Shown piece by piece: positions 1,611 to 61,370 of a stretch of 64,000 bases of DNA. The position numbers were made by a program, and so were the translations under genes. The notes under the pieces are model-generated. The model made no database searches, was not told the origin of the DNA, and was given only the letters and a program-made list of their open reading frames with translations. The DNA comes from an uncultured Dialister sp. (GTDB lineage: Bacteria; Bacillota; Negativicutes; Veillonellales; Dialisteraceae): assembly GCA_934178345.1 (NCBI GenBank), contig CAKPQG010000007.1:9817-73816 (forward strand). The letters are read 5' to 3'. Within the stretch, counting starts at the first letter, position 1; each line of letters begins with the position of its first letter.

Positions 1611-1905
1611 ATGCGAAATGAGAAAGGGTGGTGCGGAGGAAACGCCATTTCAACAATAGCGCGAGCCAACCCCGCCTCGCTGCGCTCGGCAGCCCCTGGG
1701 GCGGCTCGCCCCTTGATTACGTTTGAAAGCTTCGATTGAATGAAAAATGAGAAATGGTGGTGCGGCGCATAAAAATATGAAAGCGCCGCAAAGTATAAAT
1801 AATGGCGATGCCATGAGCTGGCATTCCAGTTACCAGTCACTTGAGACTCCTACTCCCTAGCCACTCATCCCTGCTTTCAAACTTGTAGCTCCCGTATCGT
1901 CATTT
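1611..1905. repeat. mosaic intergenic repeat cluster
   Basis: Contains the GGTGGTGCGGCGCATAAAAAT box, a GCGCCGC box, CAGTCAC and TAGGGAT-type heptads, the AAGTTTGAAAGCAGGGATGAGTGGCTAGGGA box and the CGTCATTTCGAGCGTAGTCGAGAAATC box, all shared with other clusters. Confidence 0.85.
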
Positions 1906-2130
1906 CGAGCGTAGTCGAGAAATCTTTTTGGCACTCCTGTTTCCTTAGAACCCGTTGAACCTGTCTATCGCTCTTCACAAAAAAATTATTTCCCCACTCT
2001 TGCGTATTCGTGGTATAATAAATTGTATTTCCGAATATATGATAACTTGACGGTTTCACTATAGAGTGAAGTCATCATCAAAAAAGTGCGCCTAGGCGCA
2101 ATAGGTTGCCCGAGGGGGAAAAGGAAAGAA

Positions 2131-5989: not shown

Positions 5990-6340
5990 GAGAGAAAGAA
6001 CAATGGTGGAAGCCGTTTCATGTGTATCGTCATTTCGAGCGAAGTCGAGAAATCCTCCTTGCAGACCGATAAAGGACGCGCGAAAGTAGAAAGAGGCAGC
6101 ACACAGGTGTTGTTTTCTTGGGATGACGACACGGAGAAACCGTATTTTCAACAAGCGCGCGACCAACCCCGTCTCGCTGCGCTCGACTGCCCCTTCCAAA
6201 GGAAGGGGCGAGAATGGTGAATGACGTTCCATCCCCCTAGTCCCTAGTCACAAGTCCCTAGTCACCAGTTACCATTCACTCCCTAATCCCTAACTTTCTT
6301 TTTTGCGCTATAATAGAGACAGGTGTAAAAATAAAAGGAG
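5990..6340. repeat. mosaic intergenic repeat cluster
   Basis: CGTCATTTCGAGCGAAGTCGAGAAATC box, a GCGC box and CCCTAGTCCCTAGTCAC heptads. Confidence 0.8.
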
Positions 6341-6955: not shown

Positions 6956-7545
6956 TTGGAGGTTCAGGGTTCAGGGTTCAGGGTTCAGGGTTAGTCTCGA
7001 GGGCGTGCTGCCCCTTGATGGGGAATGAAATCTTTGCTCGAATTAGGGATTAGGAATGAAGGATCTAAGCACCGCGGAGTTTTAGAATATACGTTATTCA
7101 CGTAAGATGAGAAACCTGTGAACCTTTTGAACCTTCAGAAACCGTTTAACCTATGAAGCTTCATAAATAAGGGATAAGAATAGCCTGCTTTCAAACTTGA
7201 AGTATATAGAGCGATGCACTTACTTCGATTTTTCCCTCCTTCCTCTGGAAGTAGGGAAAAGGGGGATGAGTAGCCCATCTACCCCCTTCCTATGGAAGGG
7301 GGGATGCCCGAAGGGCGGGGGTTGGCCGAAGGCGAAAAAGAGCGAAGCCAACCTCCGGCGCTACGCGCCACCTCCTTCCAGAGGAAGGAGGGAGAAGGGG
7401 ATAGAAGAAGTGTAACAACGCTCATCTTAAGGAAGCGCCGCGGAGTATAGATGGTGGCAATGTCACTTTCGGGCATCGCTTCATAGATACTCGCGGAGAA
7501 GCCGCTACCACAACCCTGAACCTTGAACCCATCAACCTGAACCCT
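6956..7545. repeat. mosaic intergenic repeat cluster, including (GGTTCAG)4-5 and (GAACCTNTT)n tandems
   Basis: Four tandem GGTTCAG copies at 6961-6995; modules shared with the other clusters. Confidence 0.85.
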
Positions 7546-9335: not shown

Positions 9336-9712
9336 AAAAGGGTTCAGGGTTAGCTCATGGGACGTGCCGTCCCTTGGTTGTTTGCGAAAAAGGGAGAGCG
9401 GGTTCTATAGGTTCAGAGGGTTCAACGGGGGCGGTGCGGCGCATAAAAATAATGAAGCGCCGCGGAGTTTTGATAGCGCTTCGCGCCGTCGTCATTTCGA
9501 GCGTAGCCGAGAAATCTCTATGGCAGAGCGCTCATTGCCTGATGTGAGACAGCACCAAGACATCGTTTCCCCTCAGTGCATACACGCTGATTTCCGCAGT
9601 GCAGTAGAGATCGAGGGCTACGCTCGGGATGACGATGCCGGAGAATCCCAGTCACCAGTCACTAGTCACCAGTCACTAGTCACTCCTAATCCCCAAACCC
9701 AAAAGCGAATTA
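9336..9712. repeat. mosaic intergenic repeat cluster containing one copy of the palindromic CGTCATTTCGAGCG module
   Basis: GGTTCAGGGTTAG, GGTGCGGCGCATAAAAAT, GCGCCGCGGAG, the CGTCATTTCGAGCGTAGCCGAG...CTCGGGATGACGATG module, and (CAGTCACY)4. Confidence 0.85.
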
Positions 9713-12829: not shown

Positions 12830-13470
12830 CTTTTGGTATAATGGGGTAGGGTTCAGGGGTAGCCCGTGGGGCGTGCTGCCCTTTGATTGGGGATGAAAGC
12901 TTTGCTCGAATGAGGAATTAGGAATGAGGAATTAGGAATGGTGGTGCGGCGCATAAAAATCAGAAGCGCCGCGGAGTTGTGATAGCGCTTCGCGCGCATC
13001 GTCATTTCGAGCGTAGCCGAGGGTCTTTATTGCAGAACGTTCATCGCCTGATATGAGGCAACACCAGGACATCGTTTTCCCTCGGCGCATACACGCTGAT
13101 TCCCGCAATGCACTAAAGATCCCTCGGCTGCGCTCGGGATGACGATGCCGGAGAATCCCAGTCACGCCTAATCCCCAATCCCTAATCCCTAGCCACTCAT
13201 CCCTGTTTTCAAACTTAGCCTCTGGGCGTGCCGCCCTTTGATTACGTGCGAAAGAGGTTCAGTGGGGGAGCAGGTTCGGAGGGTAGGGCGGGGATGGTGC
13301 GGCGCATAAAAACATAGAAGCGCCGCGGAGTATAGATGGTGGCGATGCCCGAAGGCGGTATTCAAGTCACCAGTCACTAGTCACTAGTCGCTCGAGGCTC
13401 CTAATCCCTAGCTACTAATTTTTAGTCACCAGTCACTCACCCCTGATTTCTAGGACTACCCCCCAAAAAA
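12830..13470. repeat. mosaic intergenic repeat cluster with a palindromic CGTCATTTCGAGCG module copy
   Basis: GGGTTCAGGGG, (AGGAATT)n, GGTGGTGCGGCGCATAAAAAT, GCGCCGCGGAG, the 210-bp module, and TAGGGAT/CAGTCAC heptads. Confidence 0.85.
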
Positions 13471-15879: not shown

Positions 15880-16395
15880 CTAAGTGGCTAGTGGCTGGTG
15901 ACTAGTGACTGGTGACTGGTGACTTGTGACTGGTAGCTAGGGATTAGTGGCTAGGGATTAGGATTGCGATATGAGAAAACCGCTAGTTTCAAACCTCCGC
16001 GGCGCTTCCATATTTTTATGCGCCGCACCACCCCCGTTGAACCTTCTGAACCTGTTGAACCCGCTCCCCCTCTTTTGCAAACAATCAAGGAACGAGCCGC
16101 CCACGGGCTAACCCTGAACCCTGAAGTTTGAAAGCAGGGATGAGTAGCTAGGGATTAGGGATTGGGGATTAGGAGTGACTAGTGACTGGTGACTAGTGAC
16201 TTGAATACCGCCTTCGGGCATCGCCCTATTTATACTCTGCGGCGAAGCCGCCACCTTCATTCCTCATTCCTAATTCCTAATTTATGCGAAGCTTTCATCC
16301 CCAATCAAAGGGCGGCACGCCCCCGAGGCTAACCCTGAACCCTGAACCCTGAACCCTGAACCCTGAACCCTAAATAACCTTGTCAAGCAAAACCC
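15880..16395. repeat. mosaic intergenic repeat cluster with about 1.5 copies of the roughly 255-bp composite unit
   Basis: Heptad blocks, GCGGCGCTTCCATATTTTTATGCGCCGCACCACC, (GAACCTNTT)n, CAAAGGGCGGCACGCCC, and (CCCTGAA)5 at 16329-16372. Confidence 0.85.
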
Positions 16396-21714: not shown

Positions 21715-22255
21715 TTTGCGCGGAATCCATGGAACCTGTTATCTCTTATAGTTTGAAGGCAGGGACTAGTGGCCAGGGGTTAGGAGTGACTAGTGACTGG
21801 TGACTGGTATTGCGGTTTCTCAATAACTGGCATTTAAGTCTACTTCCGAATCAAGTGAGGAGTGAGGAATGAAGGTACGGTGCATAAAAATCAGTAGCGC
21901 CGCGGAATTTTGATAGCGCTTCGCGTCGTCGTCATCTCGAGCGTAGCCGAGAGATCTCTATGGCAGTACGGGAATCAGCATGTATGCGCCATTTCATCAA
22001 CGACGTTTTTGTTCTGCATCTTTCTTTTATCTCGCACTGACTTCTTACCGTTGTGCAAGAAAGATCGAGGGCTTCGGTCGGAATGACGATACGAGAGTCC
22101 CGTTCATCTAAAATTTACGGCGCTTTCCTATTTTTATGCGCCGCACCACCACTCCTCACTCCTCACTAGATAGCATGAGGCTTTCAAGCGCCATCAAGGG
22201 ACAGCACGTCCCACGGATATCCCCCCACCCGGCTTGTGGGGGGCTTTTTTTATTG
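21715..22255. repeat. mosaic intergenic repeat cluster, variant using (GAGGAGT)n heptads, with a divergent copy of the palindromic module and a terminal GC hairpin plus T-run
   Basis: GCGCCGCGGAATTTTGATAGCGCTTCGCG; a GTCGTCATCTCGAGCGTAGCCGAGAGATC module; TTTTATGCGCCGCACCACCACTCCTCACTCC; CCCCCCACCCGGCTTGTGGGGGGCTTTTTTT. Confidence 0.8.
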
Positions 22256-28915: not shown

Positions 28916-29082
28916 TTAGGGAAACACTGATTAAATCGTTGTCTGATTTCATTCTGGGATTTTTATACAGAGCAAGGAATCATCTGACGCGAATAGCGAG
29001 CTATTTAAGGAAGATGATGACGAAGCTATGTATAAAAATCCATATGAAATCCGGCTCTGCTATTTAATCAGCGTTTCCCTTA
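28916..29082. mobile_element. 167-bp MITE-like element (long form)
   Basis: Terminal inverted repeats TAGGGAAACACTGATTAAATCG and CTATTTAATCAGCGTTTCCCTTA. The interior is itself palindromic (GGATTTTTATACA...TGTATAAAAATCC). Near-identical inverted copy at 60969-61135. Confidence 0.8.
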
Positions 29083-30560: not shown

Positions 30561-30590
30561 AAGCACTGTGAGATCCACAGTGCTTTTTTG
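30561..30590 (+). terminator. intrinsic terminator
   Basis: AAGCACTGTG-agatc-CACAGTGCTTTTTT. Confidence 0.8.
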
Positions 30591-30673
30591 GTGCGAGCGA
30601 AGGGACTCGAACCCCCATGCACAAGGCGCAGGATCCTAAATCCTGTGCGTCTACCAATTCCGCCACGCTCGCA
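30589..30673 (-). tRNA. tRNA-Leu (anticodon TAG)
   Basis: Reverse complement gives GCGAGCGTGGCGGAATTGGTAGACGCACAGGATTTAGGATCCTGCGCCTTGTGCATGGGGGTTCGAGTCCCTTCGCTCGCACCA. Features: 7-bp acceptor stem, D-loop, anticodon loop tTTAGga, long variable arm, GTTCGAGTC T-loop, encoded CCA. Confidence 0.88.
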
Positions 30674-35499: not shown

Positions 35500-35955
35500 A
35501 GAAAGGGGAACATGGTATAATGAGCAATATATACTTTGCAGCGACGCTGCCGCTACAAGTTTGAAAGCAGGGATGAGTGGCTAGGGATTAGGAGTGACTA
35601 GTGACTGGTGACTAGTGACTAGGAAATTCCCGTATCGTCATTTCGAGCGCAGTCGAGGGATCTTTACTGCACTGCGGGAATCAGCGTGTATGCGCCGAGG
35701 GAAAATGATGCCCTGGTGCTGCCTCACATCAGACGATGAACGTTCTGCAATAAAGACCCTCGGCTACGCCCCTCTGACGACGGCGCGAAGTGCTATCAAA
35801 ATTCTGCGGCGCTTCCATATTTTTATGCGCCGCACCACCATTTCGCATTTCTCATTTCTAATTTCTCATTCAAGCGAGTCTTTCACCCACAATCAAAATG
35901 GCAGCACGCCCCACGGACTAACCCAGAACCCTGAACCCGACAGCCTTTAAATTTA
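35500..35955. repeat. mosaic intergenic repeat cluster with an inverted copy of the palindromic module
   Basis: AAGTTTGAAAGCAGGGATGAGTGGCTAGGGATTAGGAGTGACTAGTGACTGGTGAC; reverse-orientation CGTCATTTCGAGCGCAGTCGAGGGATCTTTACTGCA module; TTTTTATGCGCCGCACCACC. Confidence 0.85.
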
Positions 35956-37669: not shown

Positions 37670-40537
37670 ATGAATGATTCTCAGAAAGCTGCTGTTTCCT
37701 CGACCGGCCCTACGCTCTTGATCGCGGGGCCGGGGACGGGGAAGACCTATACCATCATCCAGCGCGTGCTTTACCTCATCCGCGAGAAGAGAGTGAAGCC
37801 GGAAGAAATCATGCTGGTCACATACACGCAGAAGGCATCGAAGGAGCTGACGACGCGTCTCACGGATGTGATGACGAAGGCGGGCATCGAGGTGAATCTG
37901 CATGAGATGTACATCGGTACCTTTCATCACATTTGCCGAAAGATTCTGAAAGAATTTCAGGAGTATACGCATCTGCCGAAGAATTATCTGGCAGTGGACC
38001 AGTTCGAGCAGCAGTACATGGTGTATGAGCATCTTTCGGAATTTGCGGCCATCCCGGATTTCCGCCGTGTGGTACAGGATTCCTATCTGAAGCAGGGGGA
38101 GCTGGTGAGGATTTCTCCATGGCGCCAGTGTCAGACGCTCTGCCGCTATGTGAATGGTCTCTCCGAAGAGCTTCTCTTGCCGGAAGAGATGCGGCGGACC
38201 TGCGGGAATGCACTGGGCGGGCGCGTAGAAGTGCTCGCGCGGATGATGATGAAGTACACGCGGCTCGAAGAAGAGGGGCACTTCATTGATTTCTCCCGCC
38301 TGCAGAAGGAGACCTATGCGCTTCTTTCTTCCCATCCGGAGATCCTTGATTGGCTACAGAAACGGATCCGCTACATCATGATCGATGAGTATCAGGATAC
38401 GAATTTCATCCAAGAGCAGCTGATCCGTCTTCTGGGAGGCTCTTCGCAGCAGATTTTCGTGGTGGGGGATGATGACCAGAGCATTTATCGCTTCCGCGGG
38501 GCGTCCATCGGAAATATTCTGGGATTTTCGAAGACCTATGAGAAATGCCATACGTTCAAGCTGGATACGAATTATCGTTCGCATCCGGGCATTGTCCGCT
38601 TCTGCATGGACTGGATGCGCGGACTCAAAAGCTGGCGCGGAGCGGATGGGCGGATGTTCCGCTATGTGAAGGGGGACATTCATGCCGCGTCAGAGGAAAC
38701 GGGGACGCCCGTCCTTCGCATCACGGGGAAGGATCTTTCCGAGTGCCATGCGCGGATCGCTGATTTCATCGAAGGGCTGAAAGAACGGGGGCAGATCACG
38801 GACTATAACCAAGTGGCGGTACTCTGTTCGTCCGTGAAAAGCAATGCATCGCGCGCTTTGCAGCTGCAGCTTCGACGGAAGGGCATCGCCTCCTACGCGC
38901 CGCGGGCGGGCTGGTTCTTCAAGCGACAGGAAGTCGAGTGGCTGATCGGGACGCTCCTATTGCTCTTTCCCGGCTTTTCGGATTCCATGGAAAATCGGGA
39001 CGACATGCAGGAAACGAGGGGGATTCTCGATACATACTTCGAGTGCATGGGCGTCGCGCGGATGATGCTCGTGAAACCCGAGCACCGAGCGCTGAAAGAC
39101 TGGCTGGACCGCACGCGGAGTGTCATTTCCTATGAGAAGAAACTCCCCGCCTCTTTTTTGCACCTCGTCTACCAGATGCTCTCCTTTGCACCTTTTTCCG
39201 ACATTTTGGACAGTGCGGTCCGGGGTGAATCGAATGCAGCCAGAAATCTGTCCGCCATCACGCGCCTGATTGCCCGTTTTGGCTTCTTCCTGCCGGAGAA
39301 TCACGGGCATGGTGAGGAGACTGTGGAGGACGTGCATCTCTTCTTTTCCCGCTATCTGCGGCTGTGGTTTGAAAACGGTGTGAATGAGTACGAAGATGAA
39401 GAGCGCTATGCGCCCTCGGGCTCCGTATCCTTCCTGAATATCCACCAGGCAAAGGGGCTCGAGTACCCCGTTGTCATCGTGCCATCGCTCGACGAGAGGG
39501 CGCGCTGGGATGCGGAAAGTGACCTGATTTCCCGGGTGGTGGAAAAGGTGAGCGGACGAAAGCCTGCCGAGCCACCGAAGGAAATGAAAAATTTTGATTT
39601 ATGGCGCAAGTACTATACGGCCTTCTCCCGCGCGGAAACGCTCCTCGTCCTCGCATCTTCTCAAAAGAAGGGGGACACCTCGGAAGAATTTCAATGGATC
39701 ATGCCCGCTCTTCCAGCATATAATGCGAAAGAAGCAGACTACCACCACCTCACCTGCCGCCCTGTGGGACGGAATGTGTTCAAGCCGCGTTTCGCCTTTA
39801 CGTCGCAGATCGCCCTTTATGAAGAATGTCCGATGAAGTATCTCTGGCATCGCGTCTACGGCTTTGCAGGCACGCAGGGGAGCCATGCCATGTACGGCGA
39901 GCTTGTCCATGAGACGATCGAGGACATCCACCGCGCGGTCCTCCGCGGAGAGGCAGAACGCGTGACGCCACCTGCCATTTATGGATGGATGATGGCGAAT
40001 TACATTTCCCTGTCTGATAAAGAAAACAGCTGGCTCCCTGAGGCAAAACTGAAGCAGGCCTTTGCAGAAATTCGTGGATATGTGGATTTCCGGAAAGGAA
40101 ACTGGAATGATGCGCTCGCTGCCGAGTGTCCTCTTGAGCTGGTCAAAGATGACTACATTCTGAATGGCACCATCGACCTTCTCTCGGGAAATGGGGATCA
40201 GGTGCGGGTCATAGACTTCAAGACAGGGAAGAAACCGCCGATGGACAGTCCTCTTATGGAGAAATACCTGAGCCAGCTCAAGGTATATGCCTACCTCGTC
40301 GAAACAAAACTTGGGCGTTCCGTGGAAAAACTCGTCCTGTACTTCACCAGTGATGCCGAGGATCCATGCGTTGTTTTTCCTATGAGCAAAGAACGCGTGG
40401 AGAAGCGGATGGAAGAATTCGATGCGACGGCAAGGCGGATTCTGGCGCGTGATTTTGCGCGCCGCTGTGAAATGAAAAAGAACGAGCTCCCGACGGCGTG
40501 CCGGTTCTGCGACTTTAGAAAATATTGCAAGAGATGA
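37670..40537 (+). CDS. UvrD/PcrA-like SF1 helicase fused to a C-terminal PD-(D/E)xK (RecB/Cas4/AddB-type) nuclease domain with a 4-Cys cluster
   Basis: Helicase motifs (AGPGTGKTYT, DEYQDTN, VGDDDQSIYRFRGA, TNYRS). C-terminal IDLLSG...IDFKTGK nuclease core, and Cys at YEECP plus CRFCDFRKYC. Confidence 0.8.
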   Translation: MNDSQKAAVSSTGPTLLIAGPGTGKTYTIIQRVLYLIREKRVKPEEIMLVTYTQKASKELTTRLTDVMTKAGIEVNLHEMYIGTFHHICRKILKEFQEYTHLPKNYLAVDQFEQQYMVYEHLSEFAAIPDFRRVVQDSYLKQGELVRISPWRQCQTLCRYVNGLSEELLLPEEMRRTCGNALGGRVEVLARMMMKYTRLEEEGHFIDFSRLQKETYALLSSHPEILDWLQKRIRYIMIDEYQDTNFIQEQLIRLLGGSSQQIFVVGDDDQSIYRFRGASIGNILGFSKTYEKCHTFKLDTNYRSHPGIVRFCMDWMRGLKSWRGADGRMFRYVKGDIHAASEETGTPVLRITGKDLSECHARIADFIEGLKERGQITDYNQVAVLCSSVKSNASRALQLQLRRKGIASYAPRAGWFFKRQEVEWLIGTLLLLFPGFSDSMENRDDMQETRGILDTYFECMGVARMMLVKPEHRALKDWLDRTRSVISYEKKLPASFLHLVYQMLSFAPFSDILDSAVRGESNAARNLSAITRLIARFGFFLPENHGHGEETVEDVHLFFSRYLRLWFENGVNEYEDEERYAPSGSVSFLNIHQAKGLEYPVVIVPSLDERARWDAESDLISRVVEKVSGRKPAEPPKEMKNFDLWRKYYTAFSRAETLLVLASSQKKGDTSEEFQWIMPALPAYNAKEADYHHLTCRPVGRNVFKPRFAFTSQIALYEECPMKYLWHRVYGFAGTQGSHAMYGELVHETIEDIHRAVLRGEAERVTPPAIYGWMMANYISLSDKENSWLPEAKLKQAFAEIRGYVDFRKGNWNDALAAECPLELVKDDYILNGTIDLLSGNGDQVRVIDFKTGKKPPMDSPLMEKYLSQLKVYAYLVETKLGRSVEKLVLYFTSDAEDPCVVFPMSKERVEKRMEEFDATARRILARDFARRCEMKKNELPTACRFCDFRKYCKR

Positions 40538-40539
40538 TG

Positions 40540-41050
40540 TACAGGGATGAGTGTCTAGGGATTAGGAGCCTCGAGTGACTGGTAGCTAGGGATTAGTGGC
40601 TAGGGATTAGGTTTGCGATACGAGAAAACCGCTAGTTTCAAACCTCCGCGGCGCTTTTGATTTTTATGCGCCGCACCGACCCCTTTGAACCTTTTGAACC
40701 TATAGAACCCGATGAACCTCTTTCACACGCAATCAAAGGGCAGCAACGCCCCGAGGGGCTAACTCTGAACCCTGAACCCTGAAGTTTGAAAGCAGGTATG
40801 AGTGGCTAGTGACTAGTGATTGGTAGCTAGGGATTAGTAGCTAGGGATTAGGTTTGCGATACGAGAAAACCGCCAGTTTCAAACCTCTGCGGCGCTTCTA
40901 TTTTTTATGCGCCGCACCACCCCCTTTGAACCTCTTGAACCTATAGAACCCGCTGAACCTCTTTCGCACGTAATCAAAGGGCAGCACGCCCCGTGGTCTA
41001 ACCCTGAACCCCGAACCCCGAACCCTGAACCCCGAACCCTGAACCCTAAA
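40540..41050. repeat. direct tandem duplication (2 copies) of the roughly 255-bp composite repeat unit
   Basis: Unit: GATGAGTG...CTAGGGATTAG heptads, TTTGCGATACGAGAAAACCGCTAGTTTCAAACCTCCGCGGCGCTTYTGATTTTTATGCGCCGCACC, (GAACCTNTT)n, CAAAGGGCAGCACGCCCCG, (CCCTGAA/CCCCGAA)n. Copies at about 40545-40795 and 40796-41048. Confidence 0.85.
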
Positions 41051-52419: not shown

Positions 52420-52730
52420 GGGAGGCTTGGGGTTAGCCCAAGGGGCGGGGCGCCCATGGATTGCGGATGAAAGCCTCTCTCGAATGAGAAATGAGAAATG
52501 CGAAATGGTGGTGCGGCGCATAAAAATCAGAAGCGCCTCGGAGGTTTGAAATTAGCGATTTTCTCGTATCGCAAACCTAATCCCTAGCCACTAGTCACTA
52601 GCCACTAGCCACTAGCCACTAGTCACTAGTTACTAGTCACTAGTCACCAGTCACCAGTCACTCAAGGCCACTCATCCCTAATCCCAGATTTAGAACCTAT
52701 TACCTATGGGGGCATGCATAGGCGGCCATG
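52420..52730. repeat. mosaic intergenic repeat cluster with a roughly 10-copy (CACTAGY) heptamer tract
   Basis: Heptamer tract at 52588-52662; GGTGGTGCGGCGCATAAAAAT and GCGCCTCGGAG boxes. Confidence 0.85.
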
Positions 52731-52778: not shown

Positions 52779-54716
52779 ATGAGAGGAAGAATTTATAAAA
52801 GTCTGCTCTTTATGGGCATCATATCCGTGGTCGTGACATTTATACTCTCGGCCATCTTATATTACCAGGGGATGCAGGAGCAGATCAGTGCAGAGCTCGG
52901 TCGCACGGCGCGTGTTGTTTCCGGTGCGATTTCCAGAGACAGGGAAGAGAGCAGCCTCGAGTATCTGGACTGGATTTTCAAAGACAATGAACGTGCCATT
53001 CACATTGTCTGGCTCGATACCGATGGCTCTGTCATCTATGACAGTGACCACAAAGAGGAGGATTACAAGGCAAGCGGCGAAGTGAAGGCGGCATTTGCGA
53101 CAGGCCGTGGACACGAAGTGCATAAGGACTCCTTTGACAAGCCGAAGAGCTATTATGCCGTCAGAGCAGATGACGGCACGGTACTCCGGCTTTCAAGCGG
53201 ACGCATGGTGAATTACAAGGGCTACTCCTCCTACCTGCCGGAGATCTTCATCTTCCTTCTGGTCTTCACCGTAGGCTGTCTGGCTGCGGCGGAACGGGAG
53301 ACGGAAAACATTTTGAAGCCCTTCCATCTTTTGGGAGAGCTCGTGCAGCGTATCATGAAGGGGGAAAAGGTAGACGCGCTGCCTCCTGAATATAAGGAGC
53401 TGCGTCCCCTCATCCGCAAGGTCGAAGAGCAGCACAAGGATATCGAGAACTATATGGAGGATATCGAAGAGGAAAGAAATACGATCCGCATCGTGGTCGA
53501 TACCATCGCAGACGGCATCATCCTTCTGAATGGCAGCCGTGAAATTATCGATTACAATAATGCGATCGAAGATATTTTCCATCCGAATGAGAACAAGCGC
53601 TTCCGTCGTATAGCAAGCCTGTATCATGATGAGGACTGGCTTCGCGTCATCGGCAAAGCCTACCACAGCGAGGGGAAGCAGGAGTACACCATGTGCCTCT
53701 TTGATAAGCCCTTCCGCATGGTCATGAATCGGATCGAACTCACTGACGGAGAATCCGGCCTTCTCATCGTACTTCGTGATATGACGGCCTCCTACATGGC
53801 TGAAAAAATGCGCCGCGAATTTTCCGCCAATGTTTCGCACGAGCTGAAGACACCGCTGACCTCCATCAGCGGGTTCGCAGAAATGATCGCCAATGGCATG
53901 TACCAGAAGCCGGAGGACGTGCGCCTCTTCGGCAGCCGCATCGTGAATGAATCCCAGCGGATGCTGACACTGATCGATACCATCATGCATCTTTCCAAGA
54001 TCGAGGAGACAGAGACCACCATCACATGGAAGACTGTCTCTGCGGACAGCCTGGTGCGGTATGCAGCCGATCTCATTTCTCCGCAGGCAGATGCCAAGCA
54101 TGTCAAGGTACATGTGGATACAGACCCGCTTTACACCTATGGCAATGCGGCACTTCTCTCCGAGCTTATCATGAATCTCCTGGATAATGCGGTGAAATAC
54201 AACCATGAAGGCGGGGATGTATACGCACGCCTCTCACCGGAAGGGGAAGACAAGATGATCCTCACGGTATCGGATACAGGTATCGGCATTCCGAAGGATA
54301 AGCAGGGGCGCGTCTTTGAGCGCTTCTACCGCGCCGAAGCGAGCCGCAACAAAGCGACCGGCGGCAGCGGACTCGGACTTGCCATCTGTAAGCATATCGT
54401 AGAAAAGCACAAGGGCATGCTCTCTATCGAAAGTACCGAAGGGGAAGGCACGACCGTCACCGTTATCCTGCCCAGAATGAGCGAAGGCGACGTGGATCGA
54501 GAGCAGGCCGAAGCCATGACGGCAAAGCAGGAAGCGGCAGATGCAGAGTCTGGTCGTCTCGCCGCCGAAGAAGCCGAAGAAGACAGAAAGGCCAGCGAAG
54601 CCGCGGGTGATGTCAAAGGCGAAAAGGCGGGAAAAGACGTACACCACAAGGTCAAGAAGCCGAAGAAAGAAAAGAAAGAGAAGGGACGGAAGAAGGAAGA
54701 AAAGAAGAAAAAGTGA
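52779..54716 (+). CDS. sensor histidine kinase (PhoR-like) with a C-terminal Lys/Glu-rich tail
   Basis: 2 TM, PAS, HisKA (SHELKTPL), HATPase_c (GGSGLGLAI). C-terminal KVKKPKKEKKEKGRKKEEKKKK. Confidence 0.85.
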   Translation: MRGRIYKSLLFMGIISVVVTFILSAILYYQGMQEQISAELGRTARVVSGAISRDREESSLEYLDWIFKDNERAIHIVWLDTDGSVIYDSDHKEEDYKASGEVKAAFATGRGHEVHKDSFDKPKSYYAVRADDGTVLRLSSGRMVNYKGYSSYLPEIFIFLLVFTVGCLAAAERETENILKPFHLLGELVQRIMKGEKVDALPPEYKELRPLIRKVEEQHKDIENYMEDIEEERNTIRIVVDTIADGIILLNGSREIIDYNNAIEDIFHPNENKRFRRIASLYHDEDWLRVIGKAYHSEGKQEYTMCLFDKPFRMVMNRIELTDGESGLLIVLRDMTASYMAEKMRREFSANVSHELKTPLTSISGFAEMIANGMYQKPEDVRLFGSRIVNESQRMLTLIDTIMHLSKIEETETTITWKTVSADSLVRYAADLISPQADAKHVKVHVDTDPLYTYGNAALLSELIMNLLDNAVKYNHEGGDVYARLSPEGEDKMILTVSDTGIGIPKDKQGRVFERFYRAEASRNKATGGSGLGLAICKHIVEKHKGMLSIESTEGEGTTVTVILPRMSEGDVDREQAEAMTAKQEAADAESGRLAAEEAEEDRKASEAAGDVKGEKAGKDVHHKVKKPKKEKKEKGRKKEEKKKK

Positions 54717-54719
54717 TTT

Positions 54720-54990
54720 GTGGCTGGTGACTAGGGACTGGGGGCTAGGGATTAGGAGTCTCAAGTGACTGGTGACTAGTGACTGGTAGCTAGGGATTAG
54801 TGGCTAGGGATTAGGTTTGCGATACGAGAAAATCGCTAATTTCAAACCTCCGCGGCGCTTCTGATTTTTATGCGCCGCACCACCATTCCTAATTCCTCAT
54901 TCCTAATTCCTCATTCGCGCAAAGCTTTCATTCATAATCAGTGGACGGAGCCGCCCGAGGGGCTAACCCTTGAATCCGACAACCTTTATT
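54720..54990. repeat. mosaic intergenic repeat cluster
   Basis: Heptads; TTTGCGATACGAGAAAATCGCTAATTTCAAACCTCCGCGGCGCTTCTGATTTTTATGCGCCGCACCACC; (ATTCCTA)n. Confidence 0.85.
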
Positions 54991-60704: not shown

Positions 60705-60968
60705 TGACTGGAATGCCAACTCATGGCACCACCATTTCGCATTTCTCATTTCTCATGCAATCGAGGCTTTCAAACGTAATCAAGGGGCGAGCCGCCCCAC
60801 GGACTAAGTTTGAAAGCAGGGACGAGTAGCTAGGGATTAGGGATTGGGGATTAGGAGTGACTGGTGGCTGGTGACTGGGATTTCTCCGGCATCGTCATCC
60901 CGAGCGCAGCCGAGGATCTTTACTGCACTGCGGGAATCAGTGTGTATGCGCCGAGGGAAAAAGATGTC
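60705..60968. repeat. mosaic repeat cluster (left part) containing a palindromic-module copy that is interrupted by a MITE
   Basis: GGTGGTGCCATGA, heptads, CATCGTCATCCCGAGCGCAGCCGAGGATCTTTACTGCACTGCGGGAATCAGTGTGTATGCGCCGAGGGAAAAAGATGTCC up to the MITE insertion point. Confidence 0.8.
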
Positions 60969-61135
60969 CTAGGGAAACGCTGATTAAATCGCAGAGTCGA
61001 ATTTCATATGGATTTTTATACATAGCTTCGTCATCATCTTCCTTAAATAGCTCGCTATTCGCGTCAGATGATTCCTTGCTCTGTATAAAAATCCAAGAAT
61101 GAAATCTGACAACGATTTAATCAGTGTTTCCCTAG
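60969..61135. mobile_element. 167-bp MITE-like element, inverted relative to copy 28916-29082, nested inside a palindromic-module repeat
   Basis: TIRs CTAGGGAAACGCTGATTAAATCG and CGATTTAATCAGTGTTTCCCTAG. The interior is about 95% identical to the reverse complement of the 28916-29082 copy. Flanking sequence continues the interrupted module. Confidence 0.85.
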
Positions 61136-61370
61136 TGCTGCCTCCCATCAGGCGATGACCGTTCTGCAATAAAGACCCTCGGCTACGCTCGAAATGACGA
61201 TGCGCCGCGCGAAGCGCTATCAAAATTCCGCGGCGCTTCTGATTTTTATGCGCCGCACCTTCATTCCTAATTCCTCATTCCTAATTCCTCATTCAAGCAG
61301 AGCTTTCATATACAATCAAGGGACAGCACGTCCCCGGGGCTAACCCTGCACCTGCACCTAATAAAGGAGA
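61136..61370. repeat. mosaic repeat cluster (right part, continuation of the interrupted module)
   Basis: TGCTGCCTCCCATCAGGCGATGACCGTTCTGCAATAAAGACCCTCGGCTACGCTCGAAATGACGATG; GCGCCGCGCGAAGCGCTATCAAAATTCCGCGGCGCTTCTGATTTTTATGCGCCGCACC; (TTCCTAA)n. Confidence 0.8.

Follow-up and report, generated by a model that had tools for sequence, protein, structure and literature searches.

The repeat module studied here occupies positions 12998..13147 (+) of the window, by which we mean the whole 64-kb stretch of Dialister DNA under analysis, and consists of two inverted, CGTC-tagged hairpins that point their tags outward around a spacer. Its left arm hairpin (13000..13026, +) is made up of the CGTC tag, an ATTTC stem, GA, GCGTAGC and CGA, and its stem can pair only via G.T because the 3' half is one base short (GAG-GGTC). 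The right arm hairpin (13118..13144, minus strand) matches the 27-nt motif described below perfectly, reading CGTCATCCCGAGCGCAGCCGAGGGATC on the minus strand, and the two CGTC tags of this copy are found at 13000-13003 (+) and 13141-13144 (minus strand). The spacer in between (13027..13117, about 91 nt, no strand assigned) belongs to this repeat family alone; the 'inner arms', which prolong the long hairpin, form its two ends, and two small stems lie within the spacer.

Module copies in the window

By repeat finding, BLAST and alignment, we mapped five full module copies, one decayed copy and one lone arm on the two strands of the 64-kb window. The module is delimited by ATCGTCAT...ATGACGAT and measures about 150 bp, and its 22-nt outer arm, CGTCATTTCGAGCGTAGCCGAG, occurs at nine sites in the window at up to three mismatches, against zero expected from shuffled sequence. 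The first-pass annotation, which had singled out the copy at 12998..13147, had proposed a recurrent palindromic module of 210 bp at five sites, with inverted outer and inner arms that could form a long hairpin. Repeat finding and alignment confirm the five sites, and the length has to be corrected to the 150-bp unit, the surplus being conserved flanking modules of a larger mosaic. The hairpin was also borne out: as a single strand, 12996-13149 folds into one long hairpin at -43.4 kcal/mol with DNA parameters (z = -7.7) and at -85 kcal/mol as RNA (z = -10.6).

The copies differ in the state of their arms. At 9488..9637 (+), the left arm (9490-9516) is perfect and the right arm (9608-9634) carries a local inversion of CGAGGG to CCCTCG. 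The copy at 35633..35782 (-) lies in inverted orientation with one intact arm (35636-35662) and one degenerate arm (CA-GAGGGGCG), while the copy at 60891..61201 (-), with arms at 60893-60919 (+) and 61173-61199 (-), is split by a nested element. Both arms are still recognisable in a divergent copy at 21928..22090 (+), which has a different and longer spacer and a compensated CT/AG stem in its left arm (21930-21956). The decayed copy (about 6026..6130, +) retains an intact left arm (6028-6054) and a related spacer, its right arm being cut down to ..TTGGGATGACGAC, and the lone arm hairpin at 1898..1924 (+) is a perfect 27-mer for which no partner was detected. Since several arms show such small local inversions or deletions, many copies are decaying. 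The same rewrites recur across genomes: both the change from CGAGGG to CCCTCG and that from CATTTCGAGCG to CA-GAGGGGCG (here at 35757-35783) belong to a set seen also in the loci L031, L002 and L095, and these recurrent inversions and rewrites may result from template switching inside the hairpin.

Genomic context and strain comparison

All five full copies are intergenic, and four of them sit between Pfam-supported genes. Two lie between co-directional genes (panC/SBF and mgsA/ftsK) and two in divergent regions (sulfatase/HD and URO-D/DUF6020); the genes flanking the fifth copy, at 21928-22090, have no Pfam match. Both orientations relative to the genes are found. The module is one cassette of mosaic intergenic arrays, which are built from at least 20 short repeat families in the window, and the sequence immediately outside both tags is conserved between copies.

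Mosaic DNA of this kind fills most intergenic regions of the window, for example 12850-13450, 15880-16350, 40530-41010, 52430-52700 and 54700-54980, a repeat density that is unusual for a genome of about 2.5 Mb. Its families include heptamer arrays (GGGATTAG, GTGACTR), which resemble cyanobacterial STRR repeats, a GGTGCGGCGCATAAAAAT..GAAGCGCCGC hairpin and an AGCCC..GGGCG..CCCTTTGATT module. A tRNA-Leu gene at 30589-30672 (-) is the sole Rfam or ARAGORN match in the window.

Among the matches listed, full modules that are 69-93% identical to the 12990 copy and share its flanking heptamer repeats were found in Dialister assemblies only, including that of an isolate, Dialister sp. i34-0019-2H8. 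This restriction led us to discard a cyanobacterial origin, which the heptamer repeats had at first suggested, and the window probably comes from a Dialister species. Two short contigs of a 'Fusicatenibacter saccharivorans' assembly (L002, L031) probably represent mis-binned Dialister DNA, because they carry Dialister-type modules and heptamer repeats. Exact window proteins are also encoded on many human-gut metagenome contigs, and a BLAST search with a consensus dimer found nothing similar in plasmids or phages.

Across strains of one species, the intergenic region at 12990 is 99-99.9% identical; the module is kept, and a clean presence/absence polymorphism was not found at this locus. In strain L200 (1960-2260, compared with 12840-13260 of the window), the outer mosaic modules are kept next to a different upstream gene, and a different inner cassette replaces the CGTC dimer together with its neighbouring hairpin. 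This swap of a whole cassette points to recombination between mosaic units rather than to excision. Our search for orthologous filled and empty sites among the Dialister pieces returned none orthologous to the window, and their copies are therefore dispersed family members.

The arm is a hairpin common to many phyla

The outer arm is a 27-nt hairpin of the form CGTC-AT-yy-C-GA-GCG-N-AG-Y-C-GA-G-rr-AT-C. In its fold, the CGTC tag is followed by a 5-bp Watson-Crick stem starting with A-T and T-A, two tandem G.A mismatches and a G-C pair; the apical part consists of a bulged pyrimidine and a C-G(N)A-G mini-hairpin, and a conserved C follows the stem. The A-T then T-A stem start is present in all intact arms of the window. 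GCGNAGC is a classical DNA mini-hairpin, known for its very high stability (PMC13037366). Read on the other strand, the mismatches turn into pyrimidine-pyrimidine oppositions, and the structure is therefore specific to the strand that reads CGTC.

A motif scan with CGTCATYYCGAGCGYAGYCGAG, using one genome per species, returned at least 115 stretches from more than 10 phyla. Among the matches listed are Alphaproteobacteria, Gammaproteobacteria, Clostridia, Dialister, Thermomicrobiales, Bacteroidota, Verrucomicrobiota, Planctomycetota, Acidobacteriota, Gemmatimonadota, Eremiobacterota, Cloacimonadota and others. In some of these genomes the motif forms tandem arrays (L068:3154-3625; L064:2953-3079; L026:6984-7064); a Thermoanaerobaculia genome, for one, has five dimer units of 111 nt in a row, and an Eremiobacterota genome has single hairpins of the motif with a 29-34-nt period.

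The stem covaries across this taxonomic range. Outside the Dialister-type loci, the yy/rr positions are Watson-Crick compensated in 125 of 133 copies among the matches listed, a count composed, again among these matches, of TT-AA (17/18), TC-GA (28/30), CT-AG (6/8) and CC-GG (74/77) stems. The rr part, which follows CGAG, was not included in the search pattern. As an ascertainment control we collected 120 copies from the same listed loci that do not match the pattern and aligned the 104 distinct ones. In this alignment the proposed pairs form in 85.4% of cells, compared with 73% in shuffles (0/500), and 104 cells carry double changes, compared with 33 in shuffles; when the partners are slid against each other, pairing drops to 47% or less. 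Pair 7-24 occurs as CG (47), UA (27), GC (12) and AU (3), pair 12-19 as GC (79) and CG (10), and the stem start is AU at pair 5-26 in 67 of 104 sequences and UA at pair 6-25 in 81 of 104. Across the 120 non-pattern copies, G10.A21, A11.G20, C13-G17 and G14.A16 hardly vary, position 15 tolerates any base, position 18 holds a pyrimidine, and the tag and tail are likewise retained (G2 in 108 copies, T3 in 103, C4 in 108 and C27 in 105).

Compensatory changes, for which the first-pass annotation had suggested a test, are seen in the arm hairpin across phyla; the 12 Dialister-type copies are too alike to reveal covariation of their own, with a mean column identity of 91%. Their inner arms contain one compensated pair (UA in six copies, CG in four). 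The functional core is the self-folding motif of the outer arm, which the first-pass annotation had not recognised, and not the 150-bp palindrome.

We found no paper containing the literal arm sequence, and Rfam searches of the window and nine ssn loci at gathering and permissive thresholds gave chance-level matches only, with no fitting family. Cores of hammerhead and other ribozymes, the K-turn, attC, sso/CS-6 and rRNA or tRNA fragments were rejected, as the conserved positions do not fit.

Hairpins beside Ssn-type genes in other bacteria

Hairpins of a related kind are linked to a small nuclease. SsnA, a 94-aa single-domain GIY-YIG nuclease, binds its target NTS (CGTCATTCCCGCGMAVGCGGGAATCYRG) only as ssDNA, ignores RNA, and cleaves it slightly upstream, at a distance of a few nucleotides. 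Cleavage depends on the three bases (GTC) that precede the palindrome, and binding on the C that follows it (PMC11893778, Chenal et al. 2025). Among ssn homologues, 71% have an SRM nearby and 42% have SRMs on both sides, and in Neisseria the Ssn system lowers transformation by repeat-carrying DNA (PMC11893778).

For our own linkage test, 80 metagenome loci were picked by GIY-YIG protein similarity alone, independently of that study. P0001-like proteins of these loci are presumably members of cd10448, as judged from their size, single domain and context. With a general detector (GTCAT and a 5-bp stem ending AT), a hairpin was present within 150 nt of the gene in 69 of the 80 loci. Density amounted to 8.7 hairpins per kb within this distance, 0.3-1 per kb further off and 0.76 per kb beside other ORFs; the strict 27-mer, at up to five mismatches, reached 1.67 per kb within 150 nt of the ORF and 0.06 per kb beyond 1.5 kb. 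The linkage is orientation-specific: the nearest upstream hairpin was on the plus strand in 35 loci and on the minus strand in seven, the nearest downstream hairpin was on the minus strand in 44 loci and on the plus strand in eight, and hairpins on both sides with tags outward were seen in 27 of 72 loci. Of the 149 hairpins beside Ssn-type genes, 137 have a C directly after the stem. Some gene predictions run through hairpins, as in the ...LRFAQNDE tail of P0012.

The architecture of the Dialister arm is frequent in this collection. A GA..GA internal loop occurs in 64 of the 149 hairpins, and 34 of these have CG(N)AG as well. The arm variant of the window flanks Ssn-type genes in other phyla (L055, L161, L164), with exact window arm variants at L161 and L164; at L055, the GIY-YIG gene is bracketed by an inverted hairpin pair whose members share a rare AT/AT stem variant. 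In the motif loci among the matches listed, small GIY-YIG genes numbered just two, and both adjoin the motif. Our 80-locus result reproduces the published association of motif and ssn gene and extends it to the GA-type class.

The published SRM pattern, HGTCWYN(0-2)YYVSBRHN(0-5)WNVSBRGN(0-2)RNCYNB, has no site in the window and leaves both the window arms and the L161 flank unmatched, while the canonical NTS matches. It detects 13 of the 149 hairpins beside Ssn-type genes and none of the 64 GA-type ones, so that SRM surveys may undercount.

Search for a partner gene in Dialister

A tblastn search of the window together with 14 Dialister-type loci from the motif scan, some 160 kb in total, detected no Ssn-type gene, and a canonical ssn gene was not found in about 190 kb of Dialister-type DNA. 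A protein search with the Ssn-type protein of L164, the gene of which is flanked by an exact Dialister-type arm, named no Dialister relative. When the Dialister-type loci L196-L207 were read through precomputed gene calls, the only GIY-YIG gene was a YhbQ-like one. The role of partner is not supported for its product (P0121), which shares just 28% identity with the Ssn-type protein; the gene is syntenic and without flanking hairpins, and it lies in a conserved acetyltransferase-GIY-DUF2232 operon. In repeat-poor Dialister species, the YhbQ-like gene overlaps its operon neighbours.

In the repeat-rich Dialister clade, 300-360 nt of inserted repeats part this gene from its neighbours (L196:2198-3135 compared with L205:1501-1785), and at L027 and L197 an arm-like hairpin with a 50-nt loop insertion is located about 130 nt upstream of it.

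No recurrent protein or transposase-like ORF was found within 300 nt of the motif at 115 loci, among the matches listed, which is what one would predict were most copies remote from the enzyme gene.

Discussion

We interpret the module as a non-coding, tags-outward dimer of CGTC-tagged, Ssn-type DNA hairpins around a lineage-specific spacer of about 91 nt, a reading that we regard as probable. It builds on direct observations, namely the anatomy of the module, the absence of a coding signal, the covariation across phyla and the orientation-specific linkage to Ssn-type genes in other bacteria. By its fold, the arm belongs to the superfamily of CGTC-tagged REPs, with the anatomy of an Ssn-related motif. 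The module is neither a decayed gene nor a riboswitch-like RNA.

Three other explanations deserve consideration. The similar peptides predicted from different copies (...RHPERSRGIF.ALRESACMRRGK...) raise the question whether the module encodes, or once encoded, a small protein, and a 50-codon stop-free frame does pass through the 12990 and 35633 copies, with an ORF at 35615-35950 traversing one copy. When 12 full copies were aligned (four of the window, eight of related genomes), these two copies were the only stop-free ones, the proposed frame being broken by stops or frameshifts in the remaining 10. Copy lengths range from 148 to 152 nt, with differences that are not multiples of 3, a conserved start codon is lacking, and variable columns are spread evenly over codon positions 1, 2 and 3 (21/48, 21/46 and 27/47; chi-square p = 0.35), so that the synonymous bias for which the first-pass annotation had proposed to look is absent. 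The same arm 'peptides' moreover accompany the hairpin wherever it is present, whatever its orientation and even in unrelated phyla. With stops, frameshifts and no codon-position bias there is thus no coding signal; we reject the repeat-encoded protein, whose probability is close to nil, in favour of what the first-pass annotation itself had preferred, a non-coding palindromic repeat in which the peptide likeness merely mirrors DNA identity. That the module is an ordinary MITE, with terminal inverted repeats moved by the DDE transposase of an IS elsewhere, seems very improbable to us. Its inverted termini, its size of about 150 bp, its dispersal over many intergenic sites and an AT dinucleotide to either side of the tags would suit such an element, but its 'terminal repeats' are a self-folding motif of more than 10 phyla, unlike IS-specific ends, the conservation of the flanks between copies leaves a target-site duplication undefinable, and the 115 motif loci, among the matches listed, have no recurrent transposase nearby. 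A true MITE, for comparison, is nested in one module copy and looks quite different. This 164-nt MITE-like insertion (60971..61134), which is not part of the module family, is 97% identical to the reverse complement of 28917-29080 and has ends of its own (TAGGGAAACRCTGATTAAATCG); the uninterrupted relative L031 reads CCTAGTG at the insertion site, which suggests a TAG/CTAG target duplication. The element is also present in L027 (about 7083-7230) and L107. Kinship between the module centre and the MITE termini, hinted at in the first-pass annotation, is not supported, because the only common stretch, the 9-mer ACGCTGATT, is frequent (11 sites in the window, also outside both families); its arrangement relative to GGGAA differs between the two.

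Somewhat less improbable, yet still unlikely, is that the module acts at the RNA level in the manner of classical REPs, as a transcribed long hairpin that stabilises or terminates neighbouring mRNAs or is processed by double-strand-specific RNases, with no nuclease partner. The very stable RNA fold speaks for this, as do arm positions that pair only in a G.U-compatible manner (in mixed-stem dimers and in the 13000 arm) and the case that Di Nocera et al. make for the transcription of many REPs (PMC3733652). Against it, copies occur in both orientations relative to genes, and divergent promoter regions hold two of the five. The module has neither a terminator-like T tract nor a promoter match, and it corresponds to no Rfam family. 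A mini-hairpin of the GNA type with sheared G.A pairs is typical of DNA, the pyrimidine-pyrimidine mismatches of the opposite strand leave only the CGTC-reading strand able to form the structure, and SsnA, the only tested partner of related hairpins, ignores RNA.

For the dimer of Ssn-type DNA hairpins, a mechanism can be proposed by analogy with SsnA. Each arm folds on its own as a single strand with the CGTC tag unpaired, and the arms of this genome may be, or may once have been, substrates of an Ssn-type nuclease whenever the DNA is single-stranded, as in replication, repair or DNA uptake. A small single-domain GIY-YIG nuclease could then cut a few nucleotides upstream of GTC. The dimers might represent gene-less derivatives of a hairpin-ssn-hairpin unit, related to it as REPINs are to RAYT genes.

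A further-reaching proposal, which we put forward as speculative and consider rather doubtful, is that the arms constitute a distinct class of Ssn-type hairpins, marked by the 5-bp covarying stem, the tandem sheared G.A pairs and the C-G(N)A-G mini-hairpin, and with a separate, conserved Ssn specificity. This Dialister lineage would then contain a few hundred copies, as extrapolated from seven sites in 64 kb, which would be either orphans after loss of the nuclease or substrates of the housekeeping YhbQ-like GIY-YIG protein. If this separate specificity is real, it could yield a new tool for cutting ssDNA, and a cognate enzyme for the exact 27-mer, if one exists, would offer ready-made new specificity for ssDNA tools. 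Three aspects go beyond the literature that we found: the variant with G.A mismatches and a mini-hairpin is very widespread and clearly covaries; it escapes the published SRM pattern; and a common lineage of the human gut (Dialister, Negativicutes) carries many copies in dense mosaic arrays, with no canonical partner gene seen in the Dialister-type DNA examined.

Comparison with known systems

CGTC-tagged REPs are defined by a terminal tag that stays unpaired (CGTC, or TGTC or CCTC) next to a stem whose first bases are AT, and occur mainly as tags-outward ('HH') dimers with conserved spacers of 20-100 bp (PMC3733652, Di Nocera, De Gregorio & Rocco 2013). They include Neisseria dRS3 and Rickettsia RPE-4/-6; that survey covered five phyla, listed no Firmicutes or Negativicutes and reported no dedicated enzyme (PMC3733652). 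The window module shares with them the CGTC tag, the A-T/T-A stem start, its multiple copies and its intergenic location, and its five tags-outward dimers, with a spacer of about 91 nt, are arranged in the same way. Both have two folding options, a pair of small hairpins or a single large hairpin, and in both there are dimers with two different arm stem variants. The arm itself differs: the CGTC-tagged REP families have a continuous 8-9-bp stem and a 4-5-nt loop, whereas the window arms, set against the text descriptions of four such families, combine a 5-bp stem with tandem G.A mismatches, a bulged pyrimidine and a GNA triloop, and retain only the first base of the CCA tail.

Window arms and the NTS/SRM hairpins of ssn systems alike present (C/T)GTC, a hairpin starting with AT, and then C, and the arms preserve both of the determinants mapped for SsnA, namely the base triplet ahead of the palindrome and the C behind it. 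In other bacteria, this hairpin class brackets small single-domain GIY-YIG genes with tags outward, at frequencies near those published for SRMs. The window departs from ssn systems in that no ssn gene was found in the Dialister DNA examined. The related repeats have been tied to site-specific ssDNA nucleases that limit recombination of incoming DNA in Neisseria (PMC11893778).

REPIN/RAYT systems resemble the module in that hairpin doublets exist in hundreds of dispersed copies and the enzyme gene is bracketed by the same hairpins. They differ in the tag, GTAG instead of CGTC, and in the enzyme, an HUH/Y1 tyrosine transposase instead of a GIY-YIG protein. We rejected membership of the module in this system, given its CGTC tag and the lack of a recurrent transposase-like ORF within 300 nt at the 115 loci among the matches listed.

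Intergenic mosaic elements of Neisseria consist of repeat units flanked by dRS3 inverted repeats, and dRS3 is the CGTC-1 REP and the core of NTS. These elements and the module have in common a unit of 50-150 bp bracketed by inverted CGTC-type hairpins, and the units of both are embedded in arrays of other short intergenic repeats. Spacers and hosts are unrelated. A module of this kind is already known, and what distinguishes the Dialister repeat, namely its GA-type arm, the breadth of phyla in which this arm is found, its escape from the SRM pattern and its abundance in a gut Negativicutes lineage, makes it a noteworthy variant rather than a new category.
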